Assembly: GCA_965224465.1 (NCBI GenBank)
Contig: OZ245049.1
Location: forward strand, 4,260,001-4,292,000
DNA length: 32,000 nucleotides
Source of the DNA: Flavobacteriaceae bacterium
GTDB taxonomy: Bacteria; Bacteroidota; Bacteroidia; Flavobacteriales; Flavobacteriaceae
Direction of reading: 5' to 3'
Positions 7,139 to 32,000 of the stretch are shown one piece after another; the first letter of the stretch is position 1; each line of letters opens with the position of its first letter. A model generated the notes under the pieces. That model ran no database searches and had not been told where the DNA came from. It worked only from the letters and a program-made list of their open reading frames with translations. The position numbers were made by a program, and so were the translations under genes.

Positions 7139-7318
7139 TCGGATATTAATTAGCGCTAAAGAATAAATGGTTTATCAATAATAACGCTTTTTTTTCTCAA
7201 AATTGCATAATCAACTCATAAAATTGATAAAAATCGTCTTATTTTATAGGAATTGGAGTGTGAAAATATATTTTGTTGAAGTGTATGAATTTGTTATGTT
7301 TGTAGGAAACAATATACG

Positions 7319-16880: not shown

Positions 16881-18035
16881 TTGACATATTTTTTAAGATA
16901 CAAAGTTACATCGACCGATACAATTGAGTCTATCGCTAAAAAACACCATTTAGATATAGAAGATCTAAAGGAGTATCACAATAATAAATCCTCTATATAT
17001 GATAGGATTTTATTTGGGATCCCCGAGCATGTAAAGGAGATAGTGCTACCTCCTAAAGGTTTTACACTTAATAATGGTAAAGAAGTTTGGGACAAGATAT
17101 ATGGGGATAAACCTGTACACGTAAAGCTTTCTTATAGTGGAAAGTTTTACAATACTAAATTTATAGGCGATCTTGCTTATGCTGTTTTTAAAACCATAGA
17201 GACTGCTAGCAATAAAACAACTATTAAATACCACGTAAGTATTCGTTTTTATGTGAATGATAATAATAAACATTATGTTTCTATAGATGTTACTTCCAGC
17301 ACATATATAAACAATGAAGAGCCAGACCTTATTACCGACGAATTAGCTATTTCTTGTATGAAGTCTTTATATCCTATTGTTTTACAGCTGGATAATGACG
17401 GATTGTTGGTGGAAATACAAAACCATGATGCTATTTTGTCCCGTTGGAAAAAGCAAAAGATAATAAATCTAACATATTATAAAGGAAAGGTGGCCGAAAA
17501 TTATTTTCAACTTTTTGAACAAGCATTAGCTTCAAAAAGCAGCTTACTTCATTTTTTGAAAAAGGATTGGTTTTTTCAAGTCTATTTTAACAAAATATAC
17601 GCAAAGTATACACCTAATTACGATTTAGAGAGTGTGTTAAGTTTTTCCATATTACCAAATACTACTCCTGTGCAATTTACGGTTAGACAAGAAGTTGATA
17701 CGTATTTAAAGAATCAACAAATAAAAATTGAATTAAAAGGACTGTGTTCGGACCCTAGAAGTAGGACAGAATTGGAAAACGGAAATTACTTTCCTGCAAT
17801 GATTCATAAAAACCCGATTCCAGTAGTAGGGAAGTATAGGGCATTGTATTTTTTACATCCAAGGACAAAAAAAATAAAAGCTGCATTTTTAGAATGTAGT
17901 TTAAAACTTGAACAAGAGAAACGGATAAGCATTTCTATATCAGAAATAAAAAACAATGAAAGCAACAGGCATCCGGATGCTATTATAGAACCCAAAGAAA
18001 AGAAAGCTTCTTTTTTTAAAATGTTATTTTCATAA
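16881..18035 (+). CDS. LysM-like N-terminal domain protein of unknown function, possibly an adaptor for module 2
   Basis: 384 aa. The N-terminus YKVTSTDTIESIAKKHHLDIEDLKEYHN fits the LysM consensus (Y.V..GDT...IA......L...N). Only a TTG start is available, because a stop lies at 16854-16856 and there is no upstream ATG. Confidence 0.5.
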   Translation: MTYFLRYKVTSTDTIESIAKKHHLDIEDLKEYHNNKSSIYDRILFGIPEHVKEIVLPPKGFTLNNGKEVWDKIYGDKPVHVKLSYSGKFYNTKFIGDLAYAVFKTIETASNKTTIKYHVSIRFYVNDNNKHYVSIDVTSSTYINNEEPDLITDELAISCMKSLYPIVLQLDNDGLLVEIQNHDAILSRWKKQKIINLTYYKGKVAENYFQLFEQALASKSSLLHFLKKDWFFQVYFNKIYAKYTPNYDLESVLSFSILPNTTPVQFTVRQEVDTYLKNQQIKIELKGLCSDPRSRTELENGNYFPAMIHKNPIPVVGKYRALYFLHPRTKKIKAAFLECSLKLEQEKRISISISEIKNNESNRHPDAIIEPKEKKASFFKMLFS

Positions 18036-18046
18036 AAATAAACATC

Positions 18047-18541
18047 ATGAGCGAAAAACACATTCTTGTGCAAGGTGCAACTTGCGAATGTATCCAAGGT
18101 ACATTACCAGACATATTAAAAGTAGCTTCACATACAAACGAGTATGCCAATGATAAAGAAGGTAGCGAAAAGTTAATAGCAACCACCTTAGAAATAGGGC
18201 AACCTTTCGAGAAAAACACATTTGGACAATGCAAGTTACAGCCAACACCTAGCGGCTATAAAACATGCCAACCCAATATTACCGAATGGAACCGTTTTTA
18301 CGAAGATGTAGTCCTAAAGAATGGAGGAAATATACTTACGGAAGATAGCCAAGCTATTTGTGCCATAGCAGGGGCGCCCTGTATTAAAATAAAGGACCAT
18401 GGGCAAATAACCGAGCCAAGCGAGAAAAACATAGCAAATGCCGACCAAGATGTACAAGCGCAACTAAACCCATTAGTTGATACAAAGGACTTGTTTTTAA
18501 ATAGTAATACGGAAGAAGGAGTAGAAGATAAAGCGAGTTAA
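18047..18541 (+). CDS. DUF4280 PAAR-like spike-tip protein
   Basis: 164 aa. The Cys pattern is VQGATCECIQGTLP...FGQCK...YKTCQP...W...AICAIAGAPCIKI. It lies in T6SS context between the LysM-like gene and the large effector. Confidence 0.7.
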   Translation: MSEKHILVQGATCECIQGTLPDILKVASHTNEYANDKEGSEKLIATTLEIGQPFEKNTFGQCKLQPTPSGYKTCQPNITEWNRFYEDVVLKNGGNILTEDSQAICAIAGAPCIKIKDHGQITEPSEKNIANADQDVQAQLNPLVDTKDLFLNSNTEEGVEDKAS

Positions 18542-18552
18542 AAAATACAATT

Positions 18553-21222
18553 ATGCCAAAAGGAGTTAAAAAAATAAAGCTATACAAAGGAATGTACTAT
18601 CCGGACCAGTCGGCTTCATTAACCACGCAAGTTACTATACAGCCAGATCAGTTTGTCTCTTTTAAAGTAGAAGAATGGCTTCCGGACACTACGGAAGCTG
18701 AAAAAGAAGAAGGTGTATATTGGATGCGGCAATCACAAGATCGTAGAACAATTATATATAAAAATAAAGCTAAAGAGTATCAATTTAAAATAGGGAAAAA
18801 ATTATGTGGCCCTTATTCTTTTTATATAGAAGCGAGTAGGTCTGGAAACCGAGACTTTAAAAATAAAGCGGGTATATATGTAAGCGGATCTACAACAGCT
18901 CTTATAAAAGCGAGTGATTGGCGAAAAACAAAAAACGGAGAGGATATTAAAAATAGTGACCCTATAAAATATGGAGAACTAGTTTATTTATGGCTAGAAA
19001 CCGAAGGTCTAAACGGGGATGATGTAACAATTGAAATTTATAATAAAGCACTGGGAAGCGATGATTTAATTTTTACATACACAAATGTTACTATAGAAGA
19101 CGGGGAAGTGTTTCTTAAAATTGGAAATACTGCTTCTTGGATGGCTAAGGTTAATAACATAAGGGGAATAGAGAAATTTTGCATTAAAGTTAAGAAAGAT
19201 GGTAAATATATTCAAGACCATCTAGATGATGATATACATGCCGTATATCTTAATGTTAAAAAAGAATTAGCATCTGCTCAAACACTGCCTTCAGAAAATA
19301 TCACAGCTACTAAAGTGTTTAAAACTGAGGTAAATGCAGAACGCCACGACCCTTGCAGATTTACTGAAATTAAAGTAACTGAACTAAAAGAAAAAAACGG
19401 AAAATTAAAACCCATAACCATCTCTATTTTTAAGGATGGTCAAAAAAGAGAAGGACAAAGAATTATTAAGGAATATATAAACCGAATTATTAACTTTAAT
19501 TTTAATGATGCAAGTTTACGACCAGATGCTCAAAAAAAATTAAATAATATTTTAGGGTTTCTATTAGGGCATAAAGGAACAGAAATAACAATGAAAGGAC
19601 ACGCTTGTGTTATAGGTGATATAGATTTTAACAAATTACTATCGCAACAACGCAGCGATGCCGTTAAAGCTTTTTTTGTAAAAGGAGGTTTAGACGCTAG
19701 ACGAATGAATAGCTTAGGATTTGGAGAGTTTAATGTAGAAGAAGTTGATACTATTGCAAATAGAGACAAAGCCAGTTATATAAACTCACGTAAAGTGGAC
19801 GTATCCTTTACATTTGACGCCCATGATGCCAATACATTGGTTTATGAAACTGTAGCAGGAAGCGAAAAATATAGCACCGATTTAACGATTGATATTACAG
19901 ATTTTGATACAAAAGATTGCTTTAGAGATACAGATAAACACAATGAAAAAGTAATAATAGAAAGTGATGTAGCCAAAGAAGTAACCGCAAACGGAAAAAA
20001 AGGTATTTTATATCCCGTATTTTCTACGCTGCCAGACCAAAAAGATTTTTTTGATGCCAACTATTATGCTGCTTTAGAATATCTTTGGCCATCCAATGCA
20101 AAAAGTAATGAGTTTTATTTTTTCCTTAATTCGTGCCGGTATTATTCAAATAAAAAGAAAGCCACTCTTGTAGTAAAGACCTATCCAGATATAAAATGGA
20201 CACTGGCATTTGAATTAGCTATAAATATATCTCATAAGAAGTTTTCGAATATGCCAGAAGGAGCTATCTGGAATAAACATTGGAAAGATGCTCAGCCAGC
20301 AGGAGTTGCAAGAAGCCTTATTAATAGACGAAATAAAGAAGGAAAACTTACTCCAAAAGCTGGCGTACCAATTAAATGGGGGTTTGGTATTGAAGCGGAA
20401 TGGAATAAAAAGAATTCTAAACGTAAATTTAGTGCAGAAATAGAAAGTAAAATCAGGAAATTTACAGACACTGTAGAGGAAGTTGCAGGTGTACTAGACC
20501 AAGCCAGTGAATGGGGAAGAAATGCGGCCGAATTTACAGGATTACCAATTACATTTGATATTATATACCCTAAAGTTTCTTTTGGAATATCTTGGTATGC
20601 AGAAGGGGCTCAAAAAAACGGTAAACTAGCCACCGTTGGCGAAATTGGTTTTGCAGCAGATCCTTTAATTGGGGCAGTTGGCACTGTAGATTTAATTGCA
20701 GCAACCATATATGCCATCTCTATTGGAACAACAGGTAGTCCTGCTGTAGTAAAGCTATATAACAAGTTTACAGGGATTGCAGAAAACCTTGGTGCGAGTG
20801 TTGCCTTTGATGCTGTTTTTACAGGTGAATTGTTTATTAAATTTCCTAATTTACAAATACATAGTGTAAATGGTATTAAGCTTGACGGTGGGTTTGATCT
20901 TGGGGGAAAATTTACTATGGCTATAAGATTAGAAATTAGTATAGAAGTTGGTAAAATAGAATCTTCAAAAAAAGCTCCAATTATAAAAATAAGTGTATCT
21001 GCTATAATGCAAATAGGATTTGGTGGTTCGCTAAAGATTGATTCAGACAAATATGGCGTGTATATAATACCTAAAGTTGAGTTTTCGGGTGCAAAAATTG
21101 TAGCAGAAATTAAAGGAGAATTTGGCTGGTGGAGTTGGATGGGCGTCAGTTATACTCTAGAAGAAGTGATTATCGAGCCTAGTTCGTACACAATGGATAA
21201 AACATATATTTCAGGAAGTTAA
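18553..21222 (+). CDS. large putative T6SS effector: unknown N-terminal region, degenerate OmpA-like domain, Gly-rich amphipathic C-terminal domain (candidate membrane-active toxin)
   Basis: 889 aa. The OmpA_C-like block spans ~19480-19815 (FNFNDASLRPDAQKKLNNILGFLLGHKGTEITMKGHACVIGDIDFNKLLSQQRSDAVKAFFVKGGLDARRMNSLGFGE...NSRKVDVSF). The C-terminal ~250 aa are rich in G/A/I/V with alternating beta-like patterns (GAVGTVDLIAATIYAISIGTTGSPA...GFGGSLKIDSD...). Confidence 0.6.
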   Translation: MPKGVKKIKLYKGMYYPDQSASLTTQVTIQPDQFVSFKVEEWLPDTTEAEKEEGVYWMRQSQDRRTIIYKNKAKEYQFKIGKKLCGPYSFYIEASRSGNRDFKNKAGIYVSGSTTALIKASDWRKTKNGEDIKNSDPIKYGELVYLWLETEGLNGDDVTIEIYNKALGSDDLIFTYTNVTIEDGEVFLKIGNTASWMAKVNNIRGIEKFCIKVKKDGKYIQDHLDDDIHAVYLNVKKELASAQTLPSENITATKVFKTEVNAERHDPCRFTEIKVTELKEKNGKLKPITISIFKDGQKREGQRIIKEYINRIINFNFNDASLRPDAQKKLNNILGFLLGHKGTEITMKGHACVIGDIDFNKLLSQQRSDAVKAFFVKGGLDARRMNSLGFGEFNVEEVDTIANRDKASYINSRKVDVSFTFDAHDANTLVYETVAGSEKYSTDLTIDITDFDTKDCFRDTDKHNEKVIIESDVAKEVTANGKKGILYPVFSTLPDQKDFFDANYYAALEYLWPSNAKSNEFYFFLNSCRYYSNKKKATLVVKTYPDIKWTLAFELAINISHKKFSNMPEGAIWNKHWKDAQPAGVARSLINRRNKEGKLTPKAGVPIKWGFGIEAEWNKKNSKRKFSAEIESKIRKFTDTVEEVAGVLDQASEWGRNAAEFTGLPITFDIIYPKVSFGISWYAEGAQKNGKLATVGEIGFAADPLIGAVGTVDLIAATIYAISIGTTGSPAVVKLYNKFTGIAENLGASVAFDAVFTGELFIKFPNLQIHSVNGIKLDGGFDLGGKFTMAIRLEISIEVGKIESSKKAPIIKISVSAIMQIGFGGSLKIDSDKYGVYIIPKVEFSGAKIVAEIKGEFGWWSWMGVSYTLEEVIIEPSSYTMDKTYISGS

Positions 21223-21234
21223 AAAATAATAATT

Positions 21235-22095
21235 ATGAAAAACACAAAATTTGAAAAACCATATTACTCAATTTATGTTTACGAATTGAGTGCAGGTGAA
21301 ATATGGGTGAATGATGTGCCTCTTTTAAATTGGAAAGGACCACAAACTACGGATGGTGTGTATAATGGGAACATACCTATTAATCAAGTAGTATTACAGA
21401 ATGGTGTTTATGAGTTGAAGTGTATATTAAAGCCTCACTATGGTCAAAAAAAGTTGGTTAATACTATTGAGTCCTCTGTTTACACTATTGGGTTTCGTTG
21501 TAGACATGTAGATAATATAAAAAGTGGTATAAATGTAAATGGAGATGTTTATATTATGGAAAGACCTTATCAAAAGAGTTCTTCTGATTATAACTGGAAA
21601 GATCCCCTTATTAATTTAGAAGTGTATGTTGATGTGACGAAATTAACAATTACAGAACTCCCTTTTGTATTAGATGGTTGGCAAAACTCTGTAGATTTAT
21701 CTAAAATTAAAGAAAAGGTGCTGTTTCAAGAGGTTTTAGACTATTATCGCCAAATACATGCTATAATGGCTGCACACAATGCAACTAAGTTTTTAGAATT
21801 ATCTGAAGAAAAAATGAAACTGCAAGAACAAGCATTTTACTTTACCGAAGAGCGCAAAAAAAGCTTTAGAGCAGGAGCCATAAGTTTATTTAGTCAAAAA
21901 CTAGCGCCATTACCATTGGTTCCTTCAAATTTAAAATTACAAATTATGGGATATGGTAAATTAGTGCGCCTATTACAATTAGATGGGAGTGCTGCATTAC
22001 AATACGCAAGTCCAAAACCAGCGGAGCAAAGCAATATAGAGCTGGATGTAAAACTACACATGCGGAGTCAAGATAAAGGACTTAGTGTAATTTAA
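21235..22095 (+). CDS. 286-aa protein of unknown function, no signal peptide, paralogue A
   Basis: ORF lies 12 nt after the effector stop. It is paralogous to 22588..23448 and distantly to 30899..31675. Confidence 0.6.
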   Translation: MKNTKFEKPYYSIYVYELSAGEIWVNDVPLLNWKGPQTTDGVYNGNIPINQVVLQNGVYELKCILKPHYGQKKLVNTIESSVYTIGFRCRHVDNIKSGINVNGDVYIMERPYQKSSSDYNWKDPLINLEVYVDVTKLTITELPFVLDGWQNSVDLSKIKEKVLFQEVLDYYRQIHAIMAAHNATKFLELSEEKMKLQEQAFYFTEERKKSFRAGAISLFSQKLAPLPLVPSNLKLQIMGYGKLVRLLQLDGSAALQYASPKPAEQSNIELDVKLHMRSQDKGLSVI

Positions 22096-22106
22096 AACCT
22101 TATTTT

Positions 22107-22583
22107 ATGCAACGAAGAAACTTTATGAAAAACATAGCCATAAGTACAATTGGCATTTCATTTTCAGGAATTTTATTAAATTGCGCTGGAAAAGTAATGT
22201 ATTTGGATACTTTAATAGGACAAGCTGAGGATGTACTAAAAGGATTTGAAAAAGAAGGCGACAGCAATTTCTCCTATTATATTATTTCGAGTTTTGAGCA
22301 TTCTTTTTTTTCAGGGGATGTGGTTTTTGTTTTTTGTAAAAACAATACAATAGTTGGTTTTTCAGTGAAAAGAAACAATAATAAAGCAAGCAAAGAGATA
22401 GAAGCATTGTCAGAATTGTATGGTACTAAAAAAATAACCTACGAGAGTGACTTTGGAATAGAATACCAATGGAAAACAGCTGATAGAAGAATTTCTTTAA
22501 GCCATACTAAAACGTATAAAGACTTTCCTCAAAACACCTTCTATAGCGAAGCTTTATTAGATAGTAAACTGATTGTAGTGTAA
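22107..22583 (+). CDS. 158-aa lipoprotein with Tat-like signal, candidate immunity protein
   Basis: MQRRNFMKNIAISTIGISFSGILLNCAG carries a twin-arginine RRxF(L/M)K motif plus a lipobox-like LLNC. Confidence 0.6.
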   Translation: MQRRNFMKNIAISTIGISFSGILLNCAGKVMYLDTLIGQAEDVLKGFEKEGDSNFSYYIISSFEHSFFSGDVVFVFCKNNTIVGFSVKRNNNKASKEIEALSELYGTKKITYESDFGIEYQWKTADRRISLSHTKTYKDFPQNTFYSEALLDSKLIVV

Positions 22584-22587
22584 AATT

Positions 22588-23448
22588 ATGGAAAACACAA
22601 AATTTGAAAAACCATATTACTCAATTTATGTATATGAGCTTAGTGCAGGAGAAATTTGGGTGAATGATGTACCACTAGTTCGTTGGGTAGGACTTCAAAC
22701 GGCTGATGGTGACTATATTGGGGAAATACCAATCAATCAAGTTGTTTTAGAAAATGGAGAATATGAATTAGAATGTAAATTATTGCCTAGGTATGGTAAT
22801 AAACTTTTAGGAAATTCATCCTCTTACGATTTATATAACATCGCATTTCAATGTAGAGAAGTAAATGTTTTAAAAAGTAGTATTGTCTTTCATCCTGAAA
22901 TAGACACGCCCTCTTCTGGAAATTGGGATGAAAATAAGAAAAAATTTATTAGCGACGTATTTAATGATTTACCAGTATACATTTCAAAAACCAAATTTAA
23001 AATAACAGAACTCCCTTTTGTATTAGATGGTTGGCAAAACTCTGTAGATTTATCTAAAATTAAAGAAAAGGTGCTGTTTCAAGATGTTTTAGACTATTAT
23101 CGCCAAATACATGCTATAATGGCTGCACACAATGCAACTAAGTTTTTAGAAATATCTGAAGAAAAAATGAAACTGCAAGAACAAGCATTTTACTTTACCG
23201 AGGAGCGTAAAAAAAGCTTTAGAGCAGGAGCCATAAGTTTATTTAGTCAAAAACTAGCACCATTACCATTGGTTCCTTCAAATTTAAAATTGCAAATTAT
23301 GGGATATGGTAGATTAGTGCGCCTGTTGCAATTAGATGGGAGTGCTGCTTTACAATACGCAAGTCCAAAACCAGAAGAACAAAGCAATATAGAGTTGGAT
23401 GTAAAACTACACATGCGAAGTCAAGAAAAAGGATTTAGTATAATTTAA
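22588..23448 (+). CDS. 286-aa protein of unknown function, paralogue B
   Basis: The C-terminal half, from ITELPFVLDGWQNS onward, is almost identical to paralogue A at both nucleotide and protein level. The N-terminal half is much more diverged. Confidence 0.6.
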   Translation: MENTKFEKPYYSIYVYELSAGEIWVNDVPLVRWVGLQTADGDYIGEIPINQVVLENGEYELECKLLPRYGNKLLGNSSSYDLYNIAFQCREVNVLKSSIVFHPEIDTPSSGNWDENKKKFISDVFNDLPVYISKTKFKITELPFVLDGWQNSVDLSKIKEKVLFQDVLDYYRQIHAIMAAHNATKFLEISEEKMKLQEQAFYFTEERKKSFRAGAISLFSQKLAPLPLVPSNLKLQIMGYGRLVRLLQLDGSAALQYASPKPEEQSNIELDVKLHMRSQEKGFSII

Positions 23449-23533
23449 AGATTATTTTATGCAACGAAGAAACTTTATAAAAAATACAGCAATAGGTGTT
23501 ATCGGTATTTCTTTTTCAGGAATTCTATTAAAT

Positions 23534-24658
23534 CTTAAATTCAACTAATAAACGCAACTTTTCGATTTGATTCTATGATGGTTATATTTTCAAAACAGAA
23601 AAGTAGGAAAACCTACCTTTCTTGTCTTGATGGATATGTATCTTACGGTCTCAAATCTCGAAAAAAGAAGTTGTATGAAACACATCACCCAAGCGCAAAG
23701 ATACACAATTTGTTGCATGTTAAAACAAGGTTATAAACAGGTTGAGATAGCAGCTGCTATAGGAAAAGACAAGTCTGTTATTAGCAAAGAGATTAAGCGT
23801 AATTCAGACAAAAGAAATGGAGTTTACAAGCATGAATTAGCCCAAAAAAAGTATGCTAAACGTCATAAAGAAAAGCCTAAAAGAAAACGCTTTACAGAAG
23901 ATATTCAACAAGCAATAGAGTTGTTATTGCGAGACGATTATAGTCCTGAGCAAGTAGTTGGTGTCCTAAAAAAACAAGGTAAAGAAACGGTGTCTATTGA
24001 GCGTATATATCAGCATATTAGGGAAGACAAGAGGAATGATGGTGATTTACATACACACCTTCGCAGACAGGGAAGGAGATATAGAAAACGTGGCTCATCA
24101 AAGGATTCTAGAGGGGTTATAAAGAATCGTATTAGTATAGAACAACGCCCTGAAGTTGTTGAACAAAGAAATCGATTTGGAGATTTAGAGGTCGATTTAA
24201 TCATAGGTAAAAACCATAATCAAGCCATACTTACCGTAAATGATAGAGCTTCTGGAATGCTTAAAATGAAAAAAGTAAGCTCTAAAGAAGCAGTTGTTGT
24301 CACTAAAGCTATCAATGAAATATTAGAAGACTGGAAGCCTTATCTACATACTATAACAGCTGATAATGGAAAAGAATTTGCAGGCCATGAGCAGGTTGCA
24401 GAAAATTTATGTATTGATTACTTTTTTGCGCATCCATATCACTCTTGGGAAAGAGGATCTAACGAAAATTTAAATGGTTTGATTAGACAATATTTTGCCA
24501 AAGGAAGTGACTTTACAAACCTAACAGATCAAAGAATCAAAGAGGTAGAAACAAAATTAAATAACAGACCTAGGAAGAGACATAAATATCAAAACCCTAT
24601 ATTTGTAATGGAACAATTATTATTTAACTAAAAGTTGCGTTTGTGACTTGAATTCAGC
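23534..24658 (+). mobile_element. IS30-family insertion sequence
   Basis: ~1125 bp. Imperfect ~25-bp TIRs (AATTCAAsTmAyAAACGCAACTTTT). The 3-bp AAT is duplicated at 23531-23533 and 24659-24661. A single transposase ORF is present. Confidence 0.85.
23675..24631 (+). CDS. IS30-family DDE transposase
   Basis: N-terminal HTH MKHITQAQRYTICCMLKQGYKQVEIAAAIGKDKSVISKEIKRN. DDE region contains LEVDLIIG, ITADNGKEF and HPYHSWERGSNENLNGLIRQYF. The track ORF begins at a TTG at 23627; the ATG at 23675 is preferred. Confidence 0.9.
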   Translation: MKHITQAQRYTICCMLKQGYKQVEIAAAIGKDKSVISKEIKRNSDKRNGVYKHELAQKKYAKRHKEKPKRKRFTEDIQQAIELLLRDDYSPEQVVGVLKKQGKETVSIERIYQHIREDKRNDGDLHTHLRRQGRRYRKRGSSKDSRGVIKNRISIEQRPEVVEQRNRFGDLEVDLIIGKNHNQAILTVNDRASGMLKMKKVSSKEAVVVTKAINEILEDWKPYLHTITADNGKEFAGHEQVAENLCIDYFFAHPYHSWERGSNENLNGLIRQYFAKGSDFTNLTDQRIKEVETKLNNRPRKRHKYQNPIFVMEQLLFN

Positions 24659-25067
24659 AATTGCTCTGGAGAAGTAATGTCTTTAGATAATTTAATCGGG
24701 CAATCAGAAGATATACTAAAAGGGTATAACAAAGAAGGCGACAGCAATTTCTCCTATTATATTATTTCGAGTTTTGAACATTCTTTTTTTTCAGGGGAAA
24801 AAGTTTTTGTTTTTTGTGAAAACAATACAATAGTTGGTTTTTCGGTAAAAAGAAACAACAATAAAGCAAGCAAAGAAATAGAAGCATTGTCAGAATTATA
24901 TGGAACTAAAAAAATAACCTACGAGAGTGACTTTGGAATTGAATACCAATGGAAAACAGCTGCTAGAAGAATTTCTTTAAGCCATACCAAAACGTATAAA
25001 GACTTTCCTCAAAACACCTTCTATAGCGAAGCTTTACTAGATAGTAAACTGATTGTAGTGTAAAATT

Positions 25068-25139
25068 ATGGAAAACACAAAATTTGAAAAGCTCTTTTAC
25101 TCTGTTTATATTTATGGGTTGAGTGCAGGATCTAAGTAA
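25068..25139 (+). pseudogene. remnant (first 21 codons) of a third 286-aa family copy
   Basis: MENTKFEKLFYSVYIYGLSAG matches the paralogue N-termini. Homology stops at 25130, where sequence related to the effector gene begins. Confidence 0.75.
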
Positions 25140-26823
25140 ATCAATTGTCTCTTTTAAAGTAGAAGAATGGCTTCTGGGCACAACCGAAGCTGAAAAAAGA
25201 AGCGATGCTATAAAGGCTTTTTTTGCAAAAGGAAAACTAGATCCAGACCGTATTACATCTGTAGGTTATGGAGAAGCTAATCGTAAAGATAAGGATTCTT
25301 CCGCATTTATAAACGAAAAGGATTATATAGAGGCGAGGCGGGTAGATATTTCTTTTAACATTCCAGTGCATCAAGCAATAGTTTATGAAACTATTGCCCC
25401 AAGTCATAAAAAAAACATCACTATAGATGTTACGGATTTTGATACAAAAGATTGTTTTAGAGAAGCAAACAAGCATAAAGTAGAAATCCTGGTACTATCG
25501 GACAATGCAACAGAAAAAAACGGAGCTAACTCTTTAGAGTTCCCCATACAATCCACCTTGTCAGCAGCAAACCCAGCTCCTTTACAATATATCTGGCCAA
25601 AATACAACCTAATTAATCCAGAAAAAAGCATGGACGCTGCAGCAACCTATATTGCGCATATACATAGTTGTCGGTATTTTTTTAATGCTCATACCCCTAC
25701 AGTGGTTGTAAAAGCATATCCTGATATTAAGTGGGATTTTCACTTATTTTTAAATTTAAGTAATAGTTTGGCTGTGAAATCGCAAAACCTTTCTCCTGCA
25801 CAACATAAAAAAATGCAAAGTAATGCAGGGAAAATTGGCGCCGAAAAACGCTGGAAACAAACCGATATAGATTTTGGTGTTGTACTTGCCGCAAAATGGG
25901 ATAAAAACCCAACTACAAGTAATTATGGAAGTGAATTAGACCTCACATTAAAATGGGAAGATAAGATAAAACGTTTTTATCAGATTTTTTCTCAATTAAA
26001 AGAAGCTTCTAAAATAATAGCTGGAAAAACAAAAAGTACAGCTGGAAAAACAGTTGGTAAAAAATTTCCTTTAGACGTTGATGTTTTACCTCCTAATTTA
26101 TGTCTAGGTGTCGAATGGCAATTGGAAAGAGGTATAAAAAATAATAAAGAAAGTACAGAGTTAGGGACATTATTAAAGTTTTATTTTAAAGCAGAGCCAC
26201 TTCTAGGAATAGAGCTAACTTTTGATTTGTTAAATGCTGCTGTTACAGCCGTAGCAAGTCCAGCTGCGGCTTTAATTGTTTCAGAAATAAGAGATTGGCT
26301 AAAAGGTGATGATGATGAAAACAGACCACTATCAATCGATATATATCTTAATTTAGTTGTTTTTGGTACAATTCAAATCTCAGATTTATCATTACAATAC
26401 AACACCGCTTCTGATAGTACAGATCCAAAACAAAAAGCACAATTAGACGCATCTGCAACTGTAGGTTTAAAGATAGAAGCAGGCTTGGTTGTAAAAGCCA
26501 GATTAGTAGTAATAGTAGGCGAATTTTATGCACAAGCCTACGCTAAGTTTGAAGGTTTAGGCTCTATAACCTTTGGGCATAAGTTAGTACATCAAACTAG
26601 TAAATTATACTATAGACCTAAACTAATGTTTGATGGTGTCACGGCTAAGGTAGAAATTAAAGCGGAAATAGGACTTTTAATTAAAAAGGGATGGTTTGAA
26701 GGTGATTATAATAAAGATCTAGTAGATTTTAACGAAAAATATGAATTGTTTAAACCTTTTGACATCATTGAAGGCATAGAAAAATTAACAGGATTAAGTG
26801 CGAATATAACACTCTTAGGATAA
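25123..26823 (+). CDS. orphan effector cassette 1: 5'-truncated, internally deleted paralogue of the 889-aa effector
   Basis: Only a GTG start is available. SIVSFKVEEWLLGTTEAEK matches main-gene codons at ~18653-18705. The sequence then jumps in frame to RSDAIKAFFAKGKLD (main-gene 19651 onward), so about 315 codons are missing. The rest is collinear but diverged over the full C-terminal domain. Confidence 0.7.
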   Translation: MQDLSKSIVSFKVEEWLLGTTEAEKRSDAIKAFFAKGKLDPDRITSVGYGEANRKDKDSSAFINEKDYIEARRVDISFNIPVHQAIVYETIAPSHKKNITIDVTDFDTKDCFREANKHKVEILVLSDNATEKNGANSLEFPIQSTLSAANPAPLQYIWPKYNLINPEKSMDAAATYIAHIHSCRYFFNAHTPTVVVKAYPDIKWDFHLFLNLSNSLAVKSQNLSPAQHKKMQSNAGKIGAEKRWKQTDIDFGVVLAAKWDKNPTTSNYGSELDLTLKWEDKIKRFYQIFSQLKEASKIIAGKTKSTAGKTVGKKFPLDVDVLPPNLCLGVEWQLERGIKNNKESTELGTLLKFYFKAEPLLGIELTFDLLNAAVTAVASPAAALIVSEIRDWLKGDDDENRPLSIDIYLNLVVFGTIQISDLSLQYNTASDSTDPKQKAQLDASATVGLKIEAGLVVKARLVVIVGEFYAQAYAKFEGLGSITFGHKLVHQTSKLYYRPKLMFDGVTAKVEIKAEIGLLIKKGWFEGDYNKDLVDFNEKYELFKPFDIIEGIEKLTGLSANITLLG

Positions 26824-26881
26824 TATTTATAAAATGGATTATAATAATTAAAACGAACATGCTTAATAACAATTATAAAAA

Positions 26882-27475
26882 ATGAACAAACTATTTAAAA
26901 TATTTTTAATGGCTTCTATGATGCAAAGTTGTGGATCGCAAACAGATTTTGATTTAACGCAACTAACTCTAAAAGGAGAAAAAATTGGAGACTTTGTTAC
27001 AAAGGACATGACAAAACAGGTATACCCATTAGTCAATAAAACAGTTACAGATAAAGAATATATAATTGTCAAAAGTGATAAGTTGCTAAAATTTAATAGC
27101 ACAAATTTAATTGGACGTCAAAATCCAAATAGTCATAAATATGGTATAAATGGGGTGTCTTTTTATTATACTAAAGTAGATAGTATCATTTATAAATATA
27201 CAATTTCTATTTATTCTAAAAAACAAGCAAAAGACCTACTTAAGGCTTTATATGAAAAATTGGGTAAACCTAACTACACTAGCTATAGGAGTGCTGAAGA
27301 TAAAGAAAAGAATAATTTTAACGCCTTGCTATGGGAGGATACTGTAAATAATCACTTATATCAACTTCGATATGGTTTAAACGGTACAGTAAAGGCAAAT
27401 TTAGAAGTGAAAAATAACTCTACAAACATTCAAGAGTTAAATATAATCAGGGCAAACTCACACTTTAATGCTTAA
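26882..27475 (+). CDS. lipoprotein, candidate immunity for orphan 1; 3' end displaced by ISAs1 insertion
   Basis: Signal and lipobox are MNKLFKIFLMASMMQSC. The last 9 codons and the stop are supplied by IS sequence. The native continuation resumes at 28685 and ends at 28820 (GSFGYWEDFLYTRQQQKNLKYSYQEYLSERLKNDSNDFKNQLTK*). Confidence 0.65.
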   Translation: MNKLFKIFLMASMMQSCGSQTDFDLTQLTLKGEKIGDFVTKDMTKQVYPLVNKTVTDKEYIIVKSDKLLKFNSTNLIGRQNPNSHKYGINGVSFYYTKVDSIIYKYTISIYSKKQAKDLLKALYEKLGKPNYTSYRSAEDKEKNNFNALLWEDTVNNHLYQLRYGLNGTVKANLEVKNNSTNIQELNIIRANSHFNA

Positions 27476-28674
27476 TACTTTTAACAGATATGCTTGATTC
27501 CAGCCTGCTTTAAGTCTTTTTCCAGCAATACCTTGTTTCTCCGTTTTTTCGTTTCTCAATAGATTCAGGGCAATTTTCAATAGTATTGAATAGTTTTGAG
27601 CTGCATTTTTATTTCTTTTTCTAGAGGCATCCTCTGAGAATGCAACATCCAATGTCCAATGTAATTTATTCTCTACACCCCAATGAGAACGAATATGACT
27701 TTGATGATTTACAGCGGTATCTTTTAAGCTAGAAATGTAATATCTAGTTGCCTTTTCTGTTTGTTTATCACTGTTTTTGAACTCCCTTATACTTTCTATT
27801 TTTATAACTTGAGTCAACTTATTCCATTTATTATCTGCGTTCTTAATAAATTGAAAATCAGAAATTACGCTACATTTTCTAGTTTCAATTCTTCCATGAC
27901 CAAGGTCAAAGTCTGTATCTATTTCTATGTTTTTTGAGAATTTGAATTCGTCCTTTATTTCCTCTAGTAGTTGTTTTTGATTTCCCTTTACGGCAAGTAT
28001 GTAATTGGCATCATTTTTTATAATCTTATCCGCAATATCAGTTTGAGTTCCCATTGCGTCTATTGTAATTATATTGCCTTCTATACACAAAGTATCAAGT
28101 AATTCCGGGATCGCAGTTATCTCATTAGATTTTTCATTGACTCTAATTTGACCCAAAACTAAATTGTTTTGATCAGCCCATGCGCTCACCATATGTACAG
28201 GTGATTTTTTTCCATTTGATTTTGCTCCTCTAAGCGCTTTTCCATCAATAGCTATTACCTGCCCTTTTGATATAGTTGAAATAGAATTGACCCATTCTAT
28301 GAAACATGTTTCAAGCTGAGAACTGTCTATCGACGAGAATACCCTGTTAATAGTGTCTTCTGATGGTATTCCATTTGGTAATTGTAGAAATTTCCTTAAA
28401 AAACCTTCTTTTGAACAAGCAAACTCAACCATTTGTTTCCATGTTTCTGCTCCACAAATGACTGAAATTATCCCAATAAGGAGGATGTCAACCAAGTTGT
28501 GTAACTTGTTTATATCGCTTCTAGGGTCTTCTATATTGCCAAAAATACTCATTATTTTACTGTCTGAATTCATATCGTTACCTATCTAATTATCAACATA
28601 ATATACTGATAATTAACGAGGTAAGCAACTTAAATTCAATGAAATTAACTTAAAAATAGTATGAGTTTGCCCTG
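27448..28674 (-). mobile_element. ISAs1-family insertion sequence
   Basis: 1227 bp with TIRs CAGGGCAAACTCA / TGAGTTTGCCCTG. A perfect 10-bp target duplication TAAATATAAT lies at 27438-27447 and 28675-28684. Confidence 0.9.
27458..28573 (-). CDS. ISAs1-family transposase (H-repeat-associated type)
   Basis: 371 aa with IEDPRSDINKLHNLVDILLIGIISVICGAETWKQMVEFA, VIAIDGKALRGA, ITIDAMGTQ, AVKGNQ and HWGVENKLHWTLDVAFSEDASR. Confidence 0.9.
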   Translation of the reverse strand: MNSDSKIMSIFGNIEDPRSDINKLHNLVDILLIGIISVICGAETWKQMVEFACSKEGFLRKFLQLPNGIPSEDTINRVFSSIDSSQLETCFIEWVNSISTISKGQVIAIDGKALRGAKSNGKKSPVHMVSAWADQNNLVLGQIRVNEKSNEITAIPELLDTLCIEGNIITIDAMGTQTDIADKIIKNDANYILAVKGNQKQLLEEIKDEFKFSKNIEIDTDFDLGHGRIETRKCSVISDFQFIKNADNKWNKLTQVIKIESIREFKNSDKQTEKATRYYISSLKDTAVNHQSHIRSHWGVENKLHWTLDVAFSEDASRKRNKNAAQNYSILLKIALNLLRNEKTEKQGIAGKRLKAGWNQAYLLKVLSIKV

Positions 28675-28854
28675 TAAATATAATAGGTTCTTTTGGTTAT
28701 TGGGAAGATTTTCTATATACAAGGCAACAACAAAAAAATCTCAAATATTCTTATCAAGAATATCTGTCTGAACGATTGAAAAACGATTCAAATGATTTTA
28801 AGAATCAACTTACCAAATAGATAATCCCCAACTTAATAGATTGTTTTTTAAAAG

Positions 28855-28918
28855 CTTGTGAATTGTAGTCTGATTTCGATTTAACACAGCTCACTTTAAA
28901 AAGAGAAAAAGTTAATGG
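28855..28918 (+). pseudogene. fragment of a lipoprotein immunity gene N-terminus
   Basis: TGTGAATTGTAGTCTGATTTCGATTTAACACAGCTCACTTTAAAAAGAGAAAAAGTT aligns with 26925-26985 of the gene at 26882 (SC..DFDLTQLTLK). It has no start codon and contains a stop. Confidence 0.55.
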
Positions 28919-28934
28919 TAGTACAAAGTTTAAA

Positions 28935-29303
28935 TTGAATACTCCCTCATACGTTAATGAGGGAGAGGCTGAGTTAAAAACGGTACTTTCTATAGAATTA
29001 AAAGCAGGAATTGAAGTTAAAGCCGCAATTGTTATAGTTATTGGAGAAGCCTATTTTAAGGCAGAAGCATCCGCTAAAGGAAAGGCATCCGTAACTTTTG
29101 GCCATGGATTATATTATAAGCAGGTAAATAGCAAAAATAGAGAGTTGTATTATGCTCCAAAACTGAATTTTGATGGGTTAAAAGTAAGTGCTGTGATTAA
29201 AACCGAAATTGGTCTTTTAATTAAAAAAGGTTGGTTTAAAGGAGATTATGATGGAGATTTACTGGATTATAAAACAAAAAAAACACTTTTTTGCCCCTTT
29301 TGA
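28935..29303 (+). pseudogene. orphan effector cassette 2: extreme C-terminal fragment (~110 codons) only
   Basis: LSIELKAGIEVKAAIVIVIGEAYFKAEASAKGKASVTFGHGLYYKQ...YYAPKLNFDGLKVSAVIKTEIGLLIKKGWFKGDYDGDL aligns with the end of orphan 1 (VGLKIEAGLVVKARLVVIVGEFYAQAYAKFEGLGSITFGH...IGLLIKKGWFEGDYNKDL). Confidence 0.75.
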
Positions 29304-29368
29304 TGTTCTTAAAGAACTAACTGGTAAAGAGGTTAAAATAATACTCATAAATTCATAAAAAAAACACA

Positions 29369-30079
29369 ATGAAAGTAGCGCAACAACTTTTTAGTATAAT
29401 ATTTTTAATTCTGTTACAATCGTGTAACTCACAAGAGAAAAAAGGAAACAAAAACAACGGAACAATGCAGCAACCATTTGATTTAGCTAACCTTACCTTA
29501 AATGAAAATATTGATGATATATTGTTAACAACTCATACATCCTTAAATGACACCATAATAGTGAACGATTACACCTATTTAGGGAATCAAAGGGTAGCAT
29601 TTTTTAAAAAAAACATATTAGTTTTTAATGGAGCACAACTTTTTAATAAGAACGATGAAATTAAAAGCCAAGTATTGTTTCATTATGGTAAAATAGACAA
29701 AGAATTAGGAGCATTTCATAATGAAAAAGATGATATTTTAGGAATGTATCAACTCAATCTAAACACAAAAAAAGAAAGTGAATTGCTCTTTGTTAATTTA
29801 AATAGCAAACTCGGTAAATGTGCTTTCACAAAAACAAGAGAAGGTTTTATAGCTGATATAAAAGAGAACAATCTAATCCCTACAAAAGATAAATTTAATG
29901 AAGAAGTATTTATTTGGAAGAAGAATGAATTAATATATTACTATTTTAAATCAGAAGTAGAAAATAAACCCAAGCAATACTTTTGTAAACTTTTTGTATT
30001 TAAATTTAATCATAAAGAATGGGTCAGCTTTTTAAGTACTTCAAGTTACCCTGAAGCTAATGAAATATTATCCTTTTGA
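29369..30079 (+). CDS. lipoprotein, candidate immunity for orphan 2
   Basis: Signal and lipobox are IFLILLQSC. It shares the post-lipobox motif FDL..LTL with the 26882 lipoprotein. Confidence 0.6.
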   Translation: MKVAQQLFSIIFLILLQSCNSQEKKGNKNNGTMQQPFDLANLTLNENIDDILLTTHTSLNDTIIVNDYTYLGNQRVAFFKKNILVFNGAQLFNKNDEIKSQVLFHYGKIDKELGAFHNEKDDILGMYQLNLNTKKESELLFVNLNSKLGKCAFTKTREGFIADIKENNLIPTKDKFNEEVFIWKKNELIYYYFKSEVENKPKQYFCKLFVFKFNHKEWVSFLSTSSYPEANEILSF

Positions 30080-30868
30080 AAACACTACTGGAAATCATTT
30101 TAATGACAGTTCTGTTACAATCGTGTAACTCACAAGAGAAAAAAGGAAACAAAAACAATGGAACAATGCAGCAACCATTTGATTTAGCAAATCTTACCTT
30201 AAATGAAAATATTGATGATATATTGTTAACAACTCATACATCCTTAAATGACACGTTAATAGTGAACGATTACACCTATTTAGGGAATCAAAGGGTAGCA
30301 TTTTCTGAAAAGAACTTATTAGTTTTTAATGGAGCACAACTTTTTAATAAGAACGATGAAGTTAAAAGCCAAGTATTGTTTCATTATGGTAAAATAGACA
30401 AAGAATTTGGAGCCATTTATAATGAGAAAGATAACATATTGGGTATGTATTAAATAAAAACAGCAACAGAAAGTAAAGCCGATTTACTTTTTAAAGTCAT
30501 TAATTATAGAAAATAAAGAGTAAAAAAATATAAATTAGGTACTATTGAAACCCATCATTGGGTAAATAACAATATGTATTTTTATTATATTATGAAAAAA
30601 GAAAATTCAAAAAACGTGTTTTTAAACATATTATTTGTCTTTAATAAAAACCACAAAGAATGGATTAATTTAATTGGTGCGTTAGGATATTCTGATGATA
30701 TGTTTTATGAAAATAAATAAAGATACCGGAAGATTTTCAGAAAACTAAATGGTTTATTTTGTTCAATATAAAATCATGAAAAAAGAAATAAATTATTCCT
30801 ATCAAGATTGTCTAGTTGAACGATTAAAAATGAATTTTGATTATATTCAGAATATAATAACCAAATAA
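30076..30868 (+). pseudogene. decayed tandem duplicate of the 29369 lipoprotein gene
   Basis: The first ~125 codons are nearly identical to 29369..30079. Then come a premature TAA at 30451, further stops and frameshifts. Recognisable remnants remain: YFYYIMKKENSKNVFLNILFVFNKNHKEWINLIGALGYSDDMFYENK and INYSYQDCLVERLK, the latter matching the tail at 28685..28820. Confidence 0.65.
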
Positions 30869-30898
30869 ATATCCAATTAAAACATTAAAAGAAGAGTT

Positions 30899-31675
30899 AT
30901 GAAAGAACCTTATTATATGATTGATTTTAATGCAGGAGCATGCTTATTTGAAATTAGAGTAAACGATCAACCAGTATTAAAAATGAACCTAGAAGGTCAG
31001 GCATCAACAAGAATCCCTATTAATAATGCAATTTTCAATAGTGGAAAACAAGAAGTTTCTGTTAAAATGCTTCCATTGTTAGGGCAAACAAAATTTTCAT
31101 CCAAAGCAGAGCTAAGCTACTCTATAAAGCTGTTTGATACAGTAAATGATTTTCAGTATAAGGAGCAGTATGATGGTTTTGAATCTATGAAAATTGAAAG
31201 TACAACAGCTCTAATAATAACGAATACGTTTTTTTTTAATGCGGAAATTCCATATAAGTTAAAAGATTATTGGAAAGATGGTGGGGAGATAAAAGACATT
31301 GAGGATTATGAAAAAAAAATAAGGAGAGCATATTTAGGGATAATAAACTTAATTAAAGGAGAGCAATTTGATTTGTTTTCTAAAAAGATATCTGATAGAG
31401 AATATAACATAGCTACTTCAATGTACCTTTCTTCAAATGAGTCAAATAGGAGGATTCAGGGTTTAATTAATGATTTAAATAGCGGATATGACTATCTTCT
31501 ATTTGAGGAAGAGTTTGCAATACCTGTTATTTCATCTTACGGAAAAAAAATAGCGTTGAAGAAAATAGACGGAGATCCGGCTTTAGGTTTTGGAAATAAA
31601 GAGAAAAGAGAGCAGCTTCTGTTAGATATAGAGTTTTATTTTAATAAAACAACCAATTCATTTGAAATTATATAA
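30899..31675 (+). CDS. 258-aa protein, distant member of the 286-aa family
   Basis: KEPYYMIDFNAGACLFEIRVNDQPVLKMN...IPINNAIFNSGKQEVSVKMLP parallels KFEKPYYSIYVYELSAGEIWVNDVPLLNW...IPINQVVLQNGVYELKCILKP. No signal peptide. Confidence 0.55.
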   Translation: MKEPYYMIDFNAGACLFEIRVNDQPVLKMNLEGQASTRIPINNAIFNSGKQEVSVKMLPLLGQTKFSSKAELSYSIKLFDTVNDFQYKEQYDGFESMKIESTTALIITNTFFFNAEIPYKLKDYWKDGGEIKDIEDYEKKIRRAYLGIINLIKGEQFDLFSKKISDREYNIATSMYLSSNESNRRIQGLINDLNSGYDYLLFEEEFAIPVISSYGKKIALKKIDGDPALGFGNKEKREQLLLDIEFYFNKTTNSFEII

Positions 31676-31755
31676 AAGCTGTTCTATCCGAATGGTACTG
31701 TAAAATTAATGTTTTTCTGTTAGTTCGAGTCATTACCTTATCTACCCACAGTTAG

Positions 31756-32000
31756 TTTAAGTGGACATTATCATTTTTGCTTAACCTTACCAACGATTTA
31801 AGTGTTAAATGGCAAAATTTGGATGCTCATGAACATAAAAAACTTCAAAAAAGAGCTGGTAAAATTGGGGCTGAAAAGCGTTGGAAACAAAAGGATGCTA
31901 CTTTTGGATATAGCCTAAAAAGTGAATGGGATAAAAATAGTGCTGGTAAATTTAATAAAGAAAGAGAGTTAAAAGCAGAATATGAAACAAAGTTTAAAAA
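31756..32000 (+). pseudogene. orphan effector cassette 3: 5'-truncated, continues past the window end
   Basis: FKWTLSFLLNLTNDLSVKWQNLDAHEHKKLQKRAGKIGAEKRWKQKDATFGYSLKSEWDKN aligns with orphan 1 (IKWDFHLFLNLSNSLAVKSQNLSPAQHKKMQSNAGKIGAEKRWKQTDIDFGVVLAAKWDKN). Weak homology continues upstream to ~31690 across an in-frame TAG at 31753. Confidence 0.7.

Follow-up and report, generated by a model that had tools for sequence, protein, structure and literature searches.

The 32,000-nucleotide window analysed here (positions 4,260,001 to 4,292,000 of contig OZ245049.1, assembly GCA_965224465.1, from a Flavobacteriaceae bacterium, read on the forward strand) contains an auxiliary island of a subtype iii type VI secretion system (T6SSiii), which begins at about 11.6 kb and from there onward has all of its genes, bar one transposase, on the + strand. 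Its cargo effector, an 889-residue protein that we call Eff889, is followed by three 5′-truncated relatives of its own gene, interspersed with partner genes. The best explanation of the whole, to which we assign a probability of about 0.68, is a T6SSiii effector island in which sequential displacement has left truncated effector copies and their partner genes downstream. Within the effector family the conserved and variable parts meet at the hexapeptide YPDIKW, a family-specific boundary motif that is previously unreported; a literature search found the string in no paper of the searchable library.

A reading made from the letters of the window only (the sequence-only reading) had proposed one full-length gene followed by at least three 5′-truncated paralogues, and all four copies are indeed present and homologous to one another:

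18553..21222, + strand: Eff889, the full-length cargo effector of 889 residues, defined by its homologues and a structure model
25123..26823, + strand: orphan 1, an open reading frame (ORF) of 566 residues with a GVG start only, comprising residues 35-51 and then residue 364 to the end of a type-0 effector, with YPDIKW at 25717-25734
28827..29303, + strand: orphan 2, the final third of a type-0 tip, interrupted by one in-frame stop, with its ORF proper at 28935-29303 (122 residues)
31756..32000, + strand: orphan 3, a type-0 tip from the YPDIKW position onward, running off the window

BLASTP aligns residues 364-858 of Eff889 with residues 23-517 of the 566-residue ORF at 30% identity (E = 4e-57), and a second high-scoring segment pair joins Eff889 residues 35-51 to residues 9-25 of orphan 1 with 15 of 17 positions identical; from these two segments it follows that orphan 1 lacks residues 1-34 and 52-363. 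The loss of the N-terminus and of some 315 internal codons that had been read from the sequence therefore holds in outline, the exact gap being 312 codons and residues 35-51 having been kept. Across this gap, ...GAAGCTGAAAAA is joined to AGAAGCGAT... in frame at an A-run. Two near-identical nucleotide patches between the main gene and orphan 1, of the kind that had been noticed before, were recovered at 18653-18705 and 25145-25197 (53 nt, 92%) and at 19885-19950 and 25420-25485 (66 nt, 79%). The 5′ patch of orphan 1 is identical to Eff889 in 49 of 53 nt and to Eff911, the effector of a related locus, in 34 of 48, and the rest of the orphan is 81% identical to Eff911. At the protein level orphan 1 corresponds to the C-terminal 560 residues of this 911-residue Flavobacteriaceae effector (P0048, 80%) and resembles P0044 of Tenacibaculum maritimum (66%), and the same cassette is thus found on a full-length N-terminus in other genomes, which is what the sequence-only reading had proposed to look for. 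The locus of P0048 (L001) encodes, in order, TssC, two Hcp proteins, VgrG, others, an adaptor, a DUF4280 protein, Eff911, a C-like protein (63% identical to the C protein of the window, described below), a 331-residue protein and an E-like protein (77% identical to E of the window).

Orphan 2 had been taken for the last ~110 codons of an effector, at 28935..29303; its homology begins at 28827, 5 nt past the stop codon of the preceding gene, and covers ~158 codons including one in-frame stop. Its 122-residue ORF matches the 566-residue ORF with E = 4e-30, tblastn aligns 28827-29300 with residues 402-546 of the latter protein (Eff566) at 37% identity, and the best match is the Apibacter effector P0098 (locus L081), to which it is 58% identical. 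A 'C-like stub' (DFDLTQLTL) that had been placed ahead of orphan 2 was withdrawn; the stretch aligns with the effector tip. Orphan 3 does not start mid-domain, as had been supposed of the sequence from 31756 onward, and starts at the conserved/variable boundary motif, where an in-frame TAG is followed by FKW in place of YPDIKW; it matches residues 202-283 of the 566-residue ORF (E = 1.5e-22, 50% identity) and is 65-71% identical to other type-0 effectors. All three orphan tips are of type 0 and represent three sub-types with 44-50% mutual identity. All three remnants have kept the 3′ end and lost the 5′ end, all lie in the same orientation, each begins no more than 80 nt from the preceding gene or stub, and no adaptor, DUF4280 or VgrG remnants are found between the array units in the window.

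Between and behind the effector copies lie the partner genes and two insertion sequence (IS) elements:

21235..22095, + strand: A1, an A/E-family protein of 286 residues with no signal peptide and no Pfam/NCBIfam match; candidate cognate immunity protein or chaperone
22107..22583, + strand: B1, a lipoprotein of 158 residues with an RR motif and an LLNC lipobox; candidate periplasmic immunity protein
22588..23448, + strand: A2, a paralogue of A1 with 74% amino acid identity
23459..25063, + strand: B2, a paralogue of B1 (92%), split by an IS30-family element
23538-24654: the IS30-family element in B2, with 25-nt inverted repeats and an AAT duplication, its transposase matching Pfam HTH_38 and rve
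25068..25139, + strand: A3′, a stub in which 23 codons of a third A gene are left, closed by TAA, 25064-25129 being 83% identical to the start of A1
26882..28821 (26882-27447 and 28676-28821), + strand: C, a lipoprotein gene split by an ISAs1-family element
~27448-28675, transposase on the minus strand: the ISAs1-family element in C, with terminal inverted repeats, an 8-9 bp AAATATAAT duplication and a Pfam DDE_Tnp_1 match
29369..30079, + strand: D1, a lipoprotein of 236 residues, recognised from its sequence
30076..~30717, + strand: D2, a duplicate of D1 (96% nucleotide identity over 300 nt) and a pseudogene, with in-frame stops at codons 126 and ~147
30899..31675, + strand: E, an A/E-family protein of 258 residues, the counterpart of the E-like gene in the Eff911 unit of L001

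The orphan-module layout, in which each truncated copy is accompanied by small genes of its own, had been recognised in the sequence-only reading and is present. Unit 1 comprises Eff889, A1, B1, A2, the IS-split B2 and A3′; unit 2 consists of orphan 1 and the IS-split C, the last 47 codons of which resume past the IS element; unit 3 contains orphan 2, D1, D2 and E, which is the gene order of the Apibacter locus L081; and unit 4, with orphan 3, extends past the window end. Both IS insertions appear to be recent, since their target-site duplications are intact. With the two elements, the A3′ stub and the D2 pseudogene, the array has suffered more erosion than the sequence-only reading had described. 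The two elements were considered as the cause of the effector truncations and rejected: both lie inside lipoprotein genes, their duplications are intact and neither abuts an effector fragment.

The position of the effector tip and of the other domains of Eff889 can be laid out as follows:

18553..19302, + strand: N-terminal beta-sandwich loading domain, residues 1 to ~250, modelled with a predicted local distance difference test (pLDDT) score of ~90 and assigned with Foldseek
19495..19737, + strand: OmpA-like domain, residues 315-395, Pfam OmpA (PF00691) with 42.9 bits against a cutoff of 27.2
20182..20199, + strand: YPDIKW demarcation motif, residues 544-549, from the family alignment
20200..21222, + strand: variable C-terminal toxin domain of type 1, from the drop in identity and membership of a cluster of 33 at 40% identity

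The family is large, with ~400 clusters at 50% identity and E < 1e-30, and occurs in Chryseobacterium, Flavobacterium, Aquimarina, Tenacibaculum (including T. maritimum), Apibacter, Pedobacter and others, some genomes holding several diverged paralogues. The 167 homologues of Eff889 that were found are mostly 860-960 residues long and are annotated merely as 'OmpA family protein'. When 172 full-length proteins are divided at [YF]PD[IV]KW, the exact string YPDIKW is found in 140 of them, the remainder having FPDIKW, YPDVKW or similar; P, D and W are invariant in the family alignment and Y, I and K almost so. Mean identity to Eff889 is 43-56% up to residue 550 and 20-28% beyond. Identity of the N-terminal parts hardly predicts identity of the C-terminal parts (r = 0.16 across the 172 proteins): 447 pairs combine at least 70% identity ahead of the motif with no more than 30% behind it, some of them at least 90% with no more than 25%, and 119 pairs show the reverse. 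In pairs such as P0036/P0105 and P0014/P0062 identity runs at 80-100% as far as the motif and at 10-35% from the next alignment segment onward, and a two-rate change-point fit places the switch 5-9 columns past the residue that opens the motif in 32 of 48 pairs, the others switching further upstream. C-terminal parts have thus clearly been exchanged between family members at YPDIKW. On alignment evidence the family shows the abrupt passage from a conserved N-terminal part to a variable C-terminal one by which polymorphic toxins in the general sense of Zhang et al. 2012 are recognised, and orphan or stand-alone tips are a second trait that it shares with them. The sequence-only reading had seen no demarcation motif; this is correct for YD/RHS, VENN and PxxxxDPxGL, and a family-specific motif nevertheless exists.

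The tips fall into four clusters at 40% identity, with 116, 33, 16 and 7 members, and all of them are joined at 30%; even a distant clade of proteins of 944-1020 residues retains weak tip homology. Tip variety is therefore the allelic diversification of one homologous domain and not a collection of unrelated toxins, because all 172 tips are linked at 30% identity. The tips are diverged versions of a single domain, for which one beta-rich fold is predicted.

Partner genes vary together with the tips. Behind type-1 effectors, an A-like gene is found in 26 of 29 loci at a median gap of 21 nt, often followed by a B-like lipoprotein gene (in 11 loci B-like genes come after A-like genes). An E-like gene lies behind type-0 effectors in all 33 loci, beyond a gene of ~215-235 residues, which is a C/D-like lipoprotein gene in the window, L001 and L081 and is elsewhere deduced from the median gap of 657 nt. 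D-like genes lie between the effector and the E-like gene in the Apibacter locus L081, and many Chryseobacterium loci have them downstream of the effector. A and E are homologues of one another (E ~1e-8 to 1e-9) and neither has a signal peptide; B, C and D carry lipoprotein signal peptides. Pfam and NCBIfam scans gave no match for the A, B, C, D and E proteins, and the homologues of A and E are all annotated as 'hypothetical protein'. Judging by gene order, each tip type has partners of its own, one a lipoprotein (B, C or D) and the other a cytoplasmic protein of the A/E family. Presumably both confer immunity, or one does so and the other acts as a chaperone, and a cognate function is argued for because the partner genes co-vary with tip type (33/33 and 26/29). 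Extra A/E copies are found in L002, L016, L019, L023, L043, L060, L073, L075 and L081.

Directly upstream of Eff889 are the two genes that connect it to the secretion machinery:

16881..18035, + strand: adaptor of 384 residues, a BtapC homologue by phmmer against PDB 9jg8_A, with a weak LysM-like match at its N-terminus
18047..18541, + strand: DUF4280 PAAR-like spike tip of 164 residues, Pfam DUF4280 with E = 1e-19

Three matches connect the genes at 16881-21222 with a complex of Bacteroides fragilis. The adaptor matches 9jg8_A, 'Bacteroides T6SS Adapter Protein C', over 104 residues (residues 135-238, E = 6e-5, phmmer), and the DUF4280 protein aligns with the N-terminal, PAAR-like part of BtpeA (9jg8_B, E = 3e-15). 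The AlphaFold model of Eff889 has a mean pLDDT of 74, and its best PDB neighbours in Foldseek, for the model as a whole, are 9jg8_C (E = 9e-8, target-normalised TM-score 0.54) and 9jdh (E = 1.6e-6); the other PDB matches are OmpA-like domains (OprF, OmpA, Pal). According to the PDB, 9jg8 is the cargo complex BtpeA-BtaeB-BtapC on a VgrG spike and 9jdh is the N-terminal domain of BtaeB, and the two matches were placed on the N-terminal domain of Eff889 by way of the target length and a weak profile match (residues 116-188 against 9jdh, E = 0.05). The genes at 16881-21222 are the flavobacterial counterpart of this structurally solved spike-loading module, because both the adaptor and the DUF4280 protein match it in sequence and the effector N-terminus matches it in structure. 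An association of a T6SSiii effector with DUF4280 had been noted before and is borne out by the Pfam and 9jg8 matches; the accompanying statement that the family is apparently uncharacterised does not hold for its delivery module, which matches the solved BtapC-BtpeA-BtaeB complex.

The two modules share an adaptor, a DUF4280 PAAR-like protein and an effector N-terminal beta domain, all encoded downstream of vgrG. They differ in that BtpeA itself bears a toxin domain (608 residues, DUF3289), whereas the DUF4280 protein here is a bare 164-residue tip, and in that BtaeB is labelled 'peptidase C39-like domain-containing protein' in the PDB, whereas the cargo here consists of an OmpA-like domain and a beta-rich tip; sequence similarity between BtaeB and Eff889 is marginal. 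Like BtaeB, the N-terminal beta-sandwich of Eff889 would most likely dock at the tip of VgrG, where the PAAR-like protein and the adaptor would receive it; this loading domain is followed by an OmpA-like domain and then by a conserved beta domain ending at YPDIKW. The gene order is conserved in a sample of 80 related loci, one per genome and from different species: DUF4280 is present in 80 of 80, the adaptor lies directly upstream of it in 79, VgrG is found within 10 kb in 71 and an A/E gene follows downstream in 79. Fte1 of Flavobacterium johnsoniae was considered as a member of the effector family and rejected, Fte1/Fjoh_3275 being a DUF4280 protein. The N-terminal domain (~270-300 residues) is also joined to C-termini outside the family profile, in P0396, P0406, P0418, P0439, P0448, P0452 and P0453, which suggests a reusable T6SSiii loading domain, because the same domain is found on unrelated C-termini.

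The OmpA-like domain is atypical. In alignments with OmpA structures from the PDB, the residues GHAC of Eff889 (348-351, at 19594-19605) align with the canonical GHTD, and the Arg of LSxxR is retained; the Asp position is occupied by a Cys that is almost invariant across the family, within the consensus GYACVIG. In structures of Acinetobacter baumannii OmpA, the Asp of GHTD and the Arg of LSxxR reportedly contact diaminopimelic acid (DAP). Ligand binding may differ here, because Cys is nearly invariant where GHTD has Asp. Members of ~775 residues without an OmpA domain occur in Capnocytophaga canis and Flavobacterium.

For the tip itself, modelling of the orphan-1 tip with 133 sequences gave a pLDDT of 90.6 and a predicted template modelling score (pTM) of 0.82. 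Its strands are 25-27 residues long and alternate between hydrophobic and polar faces, and the model also contains three helical segments and a hydrophobic helical hairpin; the hydrophobic segment has a mean Kyte-Doolittle value of 1.8 over 19 residues and is equivalent to residues 706-724 of Eff889. On this model the tip (~340-370 residues) would form a large, amphipathic beta-sheet or an open barrel around this hairpin. Pfam and NCBIfam scans of Eff889 and Eff566 found the OmpA domain only and detected no catalytic domain. Most likely the tip is a non-enzymatic toxin acting on the membrane or envelope, as the features of the model and its weak matches to outer-membrane barrels and lipid-transfer proteins suggest; toxicity and immunity are, throughout this family, roles that we infer. 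A more ambitious proposal, which we consider doubtful, makes YPDIKW a functional site, used for cleavage or release or as a preferred recombination joint, which would define a new polymorphic-toxin class specific to Flavobacteriia and Sphingobacteriia T6SSiii. Its toxins, interchangeable open barrels that attack the envelope non-enzymatically, would be delivered by a BtaeB-like loading domain together with an OmpA-like domain of atypical kind, and each would be countered by two proteins, one a lipoprotein and the other a cytoplasmic member of the A/E family.

How the array came about can be pictured as a series of displacements. Each incoming module would recombine on its left side in conserved upstream sequence and be joined illegitimately on its right side inside the resident effector gene, and the 3′ remainder of the old gene would be pushed downstream together with its partners. 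The oldest unit would be the most distal, because each displacement pushes its predecessor downstream. The right-hand junctions would lie at the motif for orphan 3 and in mid-tip for orphan 2, and that of orphan 1 would fall at codon 35; subsequent changes would include the in-frame 312-codon deletion at the A-run in orphan 1, where the in-frame join fits a later microhomology deletion, the two IS insertions and the nonsense mutation of D2. Both the order of these events and the mechanism at each junction are what we infer from the anatomy of the array. Displacement is favoured because the orphans abut the preceding unit, keep their 3′ ends, share one orientation and have no adaptor, DUF4280 or VgrG remnants between them. 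The truncated toxins would not be loadable, because their N-terminal domain is gone, and the intact partners A1, B1, A2, D1 and E probably still protect against relatives with those tips.

Orphan pieces are also found in other genomes. Searching a panel of all tip types against 84 genome-derived and 54 metagenome loci recovered extra effector pieces in L002, L012, L043, L081, L082, L118 (two fragments), L133, L138 and L092; eight of these loci contain downstream pieces or stand-alone tips, and L043 has a diverged tip-like stretch upstream of the main gene. L082 encodes an adaptor, a DUF4280 protein, Eff920, a 219-residue protein, a 256-residue protein and an orphan of 395 residues, and its main gene is only 66% identical to this orphan, much as in the window. 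Many C-terminus-only entries are found among the best 150 representatives of the profile search, and two such proteins, P0201 and P0185, start 5 residues ahead of the motif. On the 15.7-kb contig with P0185 (Joint Genome Institute metagenome 3300059473), gene sizes suggest serial orphan tips (371, 473 and 329 residues) with lipoprotein and A/E units. In L092, at 6926-8118, what lies behind a full-length effector is a diverged, incomplete copy of its N-terminal and middle part (residues ~187-573) without a tip, the opposite type of fragment to those in the window. In L084 (9135-11896; Flavobacterium anhuiense CP158864) two ORFs, of 237 and 631 residues, make up the main effector, which is apparently a broken main gene and not an orphan. 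An Aequorivita contig from a metagenome-assembled genome (JBQEAY010000015) has two complete modules ~22 kb apart (L019 and L022), each with its own VgrG, adaptor, DUF4280 protein and full-length effector.

Several points weigh against this account. Extra effector pieces in about 9 of the 138 related loci make them recurrent and not typical. Unit 2 is without an E-like gene of its own, and the unit boundaries are ambiguous because E of the window is 77% identical to the partner of Eff911. The codon-35 junction rests on the 53-nt patch, and the A3′ stub, the IS insertions and the D2 pseudogene are equally compatible with plain decay of tandem modules. The absence of a signal peptide from the A/E proteins is odd for immunity to an envelope toxin, and the fold search of the PDB with the tip model gave nothing with E < 1e-3, the weak barrel and lipid-transfer matches having E > 4e-3.

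Of the competing explanations, plain decay survives best, and even so we regard it as unlikely. Complete tandem modules, arising by duplication or independent insertion, would on this account have been eroded by deletions, IS insertions and point mutations, leaving functionless remnants with no displacement. The window shows traces of erosion (the two IS elements, a miniature inverted-repeat transposable element (MITE)-like insertion in hcp, the A3′ stub, the D2 pseudogene and the 312-codon deletion) and of tandem duplication in the A-B pair, and two complete modules lie on one contig in Aequorivita. Co-oriented, abutting remnants with the 3′ end kept and the 5′ end lost, however, are not favoured by random deletion and are predicted by displacement; adaptor, DUF4280 and VgrG remnants are missing between the units, though complete modules in 80 genomes have these genes. 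In addition, five partner genes are intact, and one remnant here and several orphans elsewhere begin at the motif.

That the array is an active stockpile for toxin switching, with silent orphan cassettes that could be joined to the expressed N-terminus by homologous recombination, as in Salmonella Rhs or cdiA orphans, and so give the strain a change of weapon, is very improbable. The layout is that of Rhs and contact-dependent inhibition (CDI) orphan arrays, orphan 1 is still open over 566 codons, the family exchanges tips at YPDIKW and the main gene has a 30-nt exact match to orphan 1. The only tract shared between main gene and orphan 1 spans codons 35-51, however, with the longest exact match at codons 35-45, and a crossover there would remove residues 52-363, and with them the loading and OmpA domains. 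The conserved region of residues 364-549 is only ~65% identical at the nucleotide level (202/309), orphans 2 and 3 share no exact match of at least 12 nt with the main gene, orphan 2 is interrupted by an in-frame stop and is missing two thirds of its tip, and two partner genes are IS-broken. Reuse of the orphans in this strain today is unlikely, on this comparison, because the longest exact match between main gene and orphan is 30 nt. The sequence-only reading had recombination swapping the tips, and at the level of the family the change points at YPDIKW uphold it; in this strain there is no substrate for such exchange beyond the 30-nt match.

Hardly any weight is given to the view that Eff889 is mainly a structural spike or cell-wall-anchoring component with accessory and not immunity genes behind it, for which the OmpA-like domain, the want of a catalytic domain and the requirement for the analogous B. 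fragilis proteins Bte3, Bfe5 and Bfe7 in T6SS firing (PMC13402684) might speak, whereas the C-terminal third is polymorphic and its partners co-vary, orphan tips and extra A/E copies accumulate, some genomes hold several diverged paralogues, some members have no OmpA domain, the Asp that canonically binds DAP is replaced, and Bte3 is both structural and toxic, the two roles being compatible.

Sequential displacement, the explanation retained here, has precedents and parallels among known systems, and the array departs from each of them. Rhs and CDI orphans are reported to possess long near-identical tracts that permit recombination, which the orphans here do not have. With Rhs/CdiA orphan arrays (PMC3482391) the array shares a conserved N-terminal part, a sharp motif, variable tips with downstream genes and 5′-truncated orphans; it differs in that Pfam and NCBIfam scans find no YD/RHS repeats, TPS, FHA, VENN or PxxxxDPxGL. 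The model of Eff889 consists of beta-sandwiches and is not an Rhs cocoon. Rhs and CdiA carry many unrelated toxins, whereas the tips here have one homologous fold.

The acquired interbacterial defence (AID) islands of Bacteroidales are mobile, recombinase-associated and located apart from the T6SS locus. Like the array, they are a case of immunity genes accumulating in Bacteroidota without a working cognate toxin; unlike them, the array sits directly behind the effector, contains effector remnants and has no recombinase besides the IS transposases. AID islands are mentioned in PMC10470768.

In the Vibrio cholerae T6SS, incoming modules displace the old effector and retain its immunity gene downstream, for which one-sided homology-facilitated recombination has been proposed (PMC5361080). 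The old genes are placed downstream and in the same orientation there as in the array here; the V. cholerae arrays, however, belong to a proteobacterial T6SSi, involve unrelated effectors and consist mostly of immunity genes, whereas here 3′ effector pieces of up to 566 codons are found with paired partners. Closer to home, Bte3 acts in the periplasm, is neutralised by the lipoprotein Bti3 and is indispensable for firing; it depends on a DUF4280 tip (Pte3) and a dedicated adaptor (Ate3), and is reported to have structural orthologues in free-living Bacteroidota (PMC13402684). Bte3 has an open beta-barrel, and no structure of Bte3 is in the PDB. Bte3, Bti3, Ate3 and Pte3 form a parallel module, and the non-enzymatic envelope action proposed for Bte3 is also the one suggested here; Bte3 differs in its length (768 residues), in having no OmpA-like domain and in that no polymorphic tip, boundary motif or orphan fragments have been reported for it. 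No Bacteroides protein was seen in the family profile search among the 10 representatives checked by name. Overall, the polymorphic T6SS effector with displaced orphan modules is known, and the scaffold and boundary motif in T6SSiii are new.

The remainder of the window, with a G+C content of ~32%, provides the genomic setting. Its left third consists of housekeeping genes for an M28 peptidase, a TPR protein, an ABC ATPase, a HAD hydrolase and an RNase T-like exonuclease, and tRNA and Rfam scans of the window gave no matches. The island genes ahead of the adaptor are:

11611..12168, + strand: hcp/tssD of the auxiliary cluster, Pfam TssD with E = 4e-27, interrupted by a 159-nt palindromic insertion at ~11886-12060
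12355..14172, + strand: VgrG spike protein, Pfam Phage_GPD, Phage_base_V and DUF2345
14332-15672, + strand: a 446-residue protein with the HExxH-like motif SHEFLHSFNLAH and a weak Reprolysin_5 match
15682-16341, + strand: a 219-residue protein with a signal peptide, next after the 446-residue gene

By tblastn with the Hcp of L001, hcp/tssD (11611-12168) spans 558 nt, against 399 expected. The 159-nt insert contains a stop codon and folds as a long imperfect hairpin (z = -7.4); it looks like a MITE, and its end sequence occurs a single time within the window. The 446- and 219-residue proteins are probably a second effector/immunity pair behind VgrG, and no homologues of either were found in the 80 related loci.

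Effectors of T6SSiii beyond the gut Bacteroidales are almost unstudied. The tie to a delivery module of solved structure, the landmark at which the tip starts and the predictable partners would make it easy to type effector and immunity genes in such genomes, among them the fish pathogen T. maritimum, which is included in the family, and would provide clean construct boundaries for what is probably a non-enzymatic envelope toxin. The view that T6SS arsenals evolve by sequential displacement would thereby be extended from Proteobacteria to Bacteroidota.

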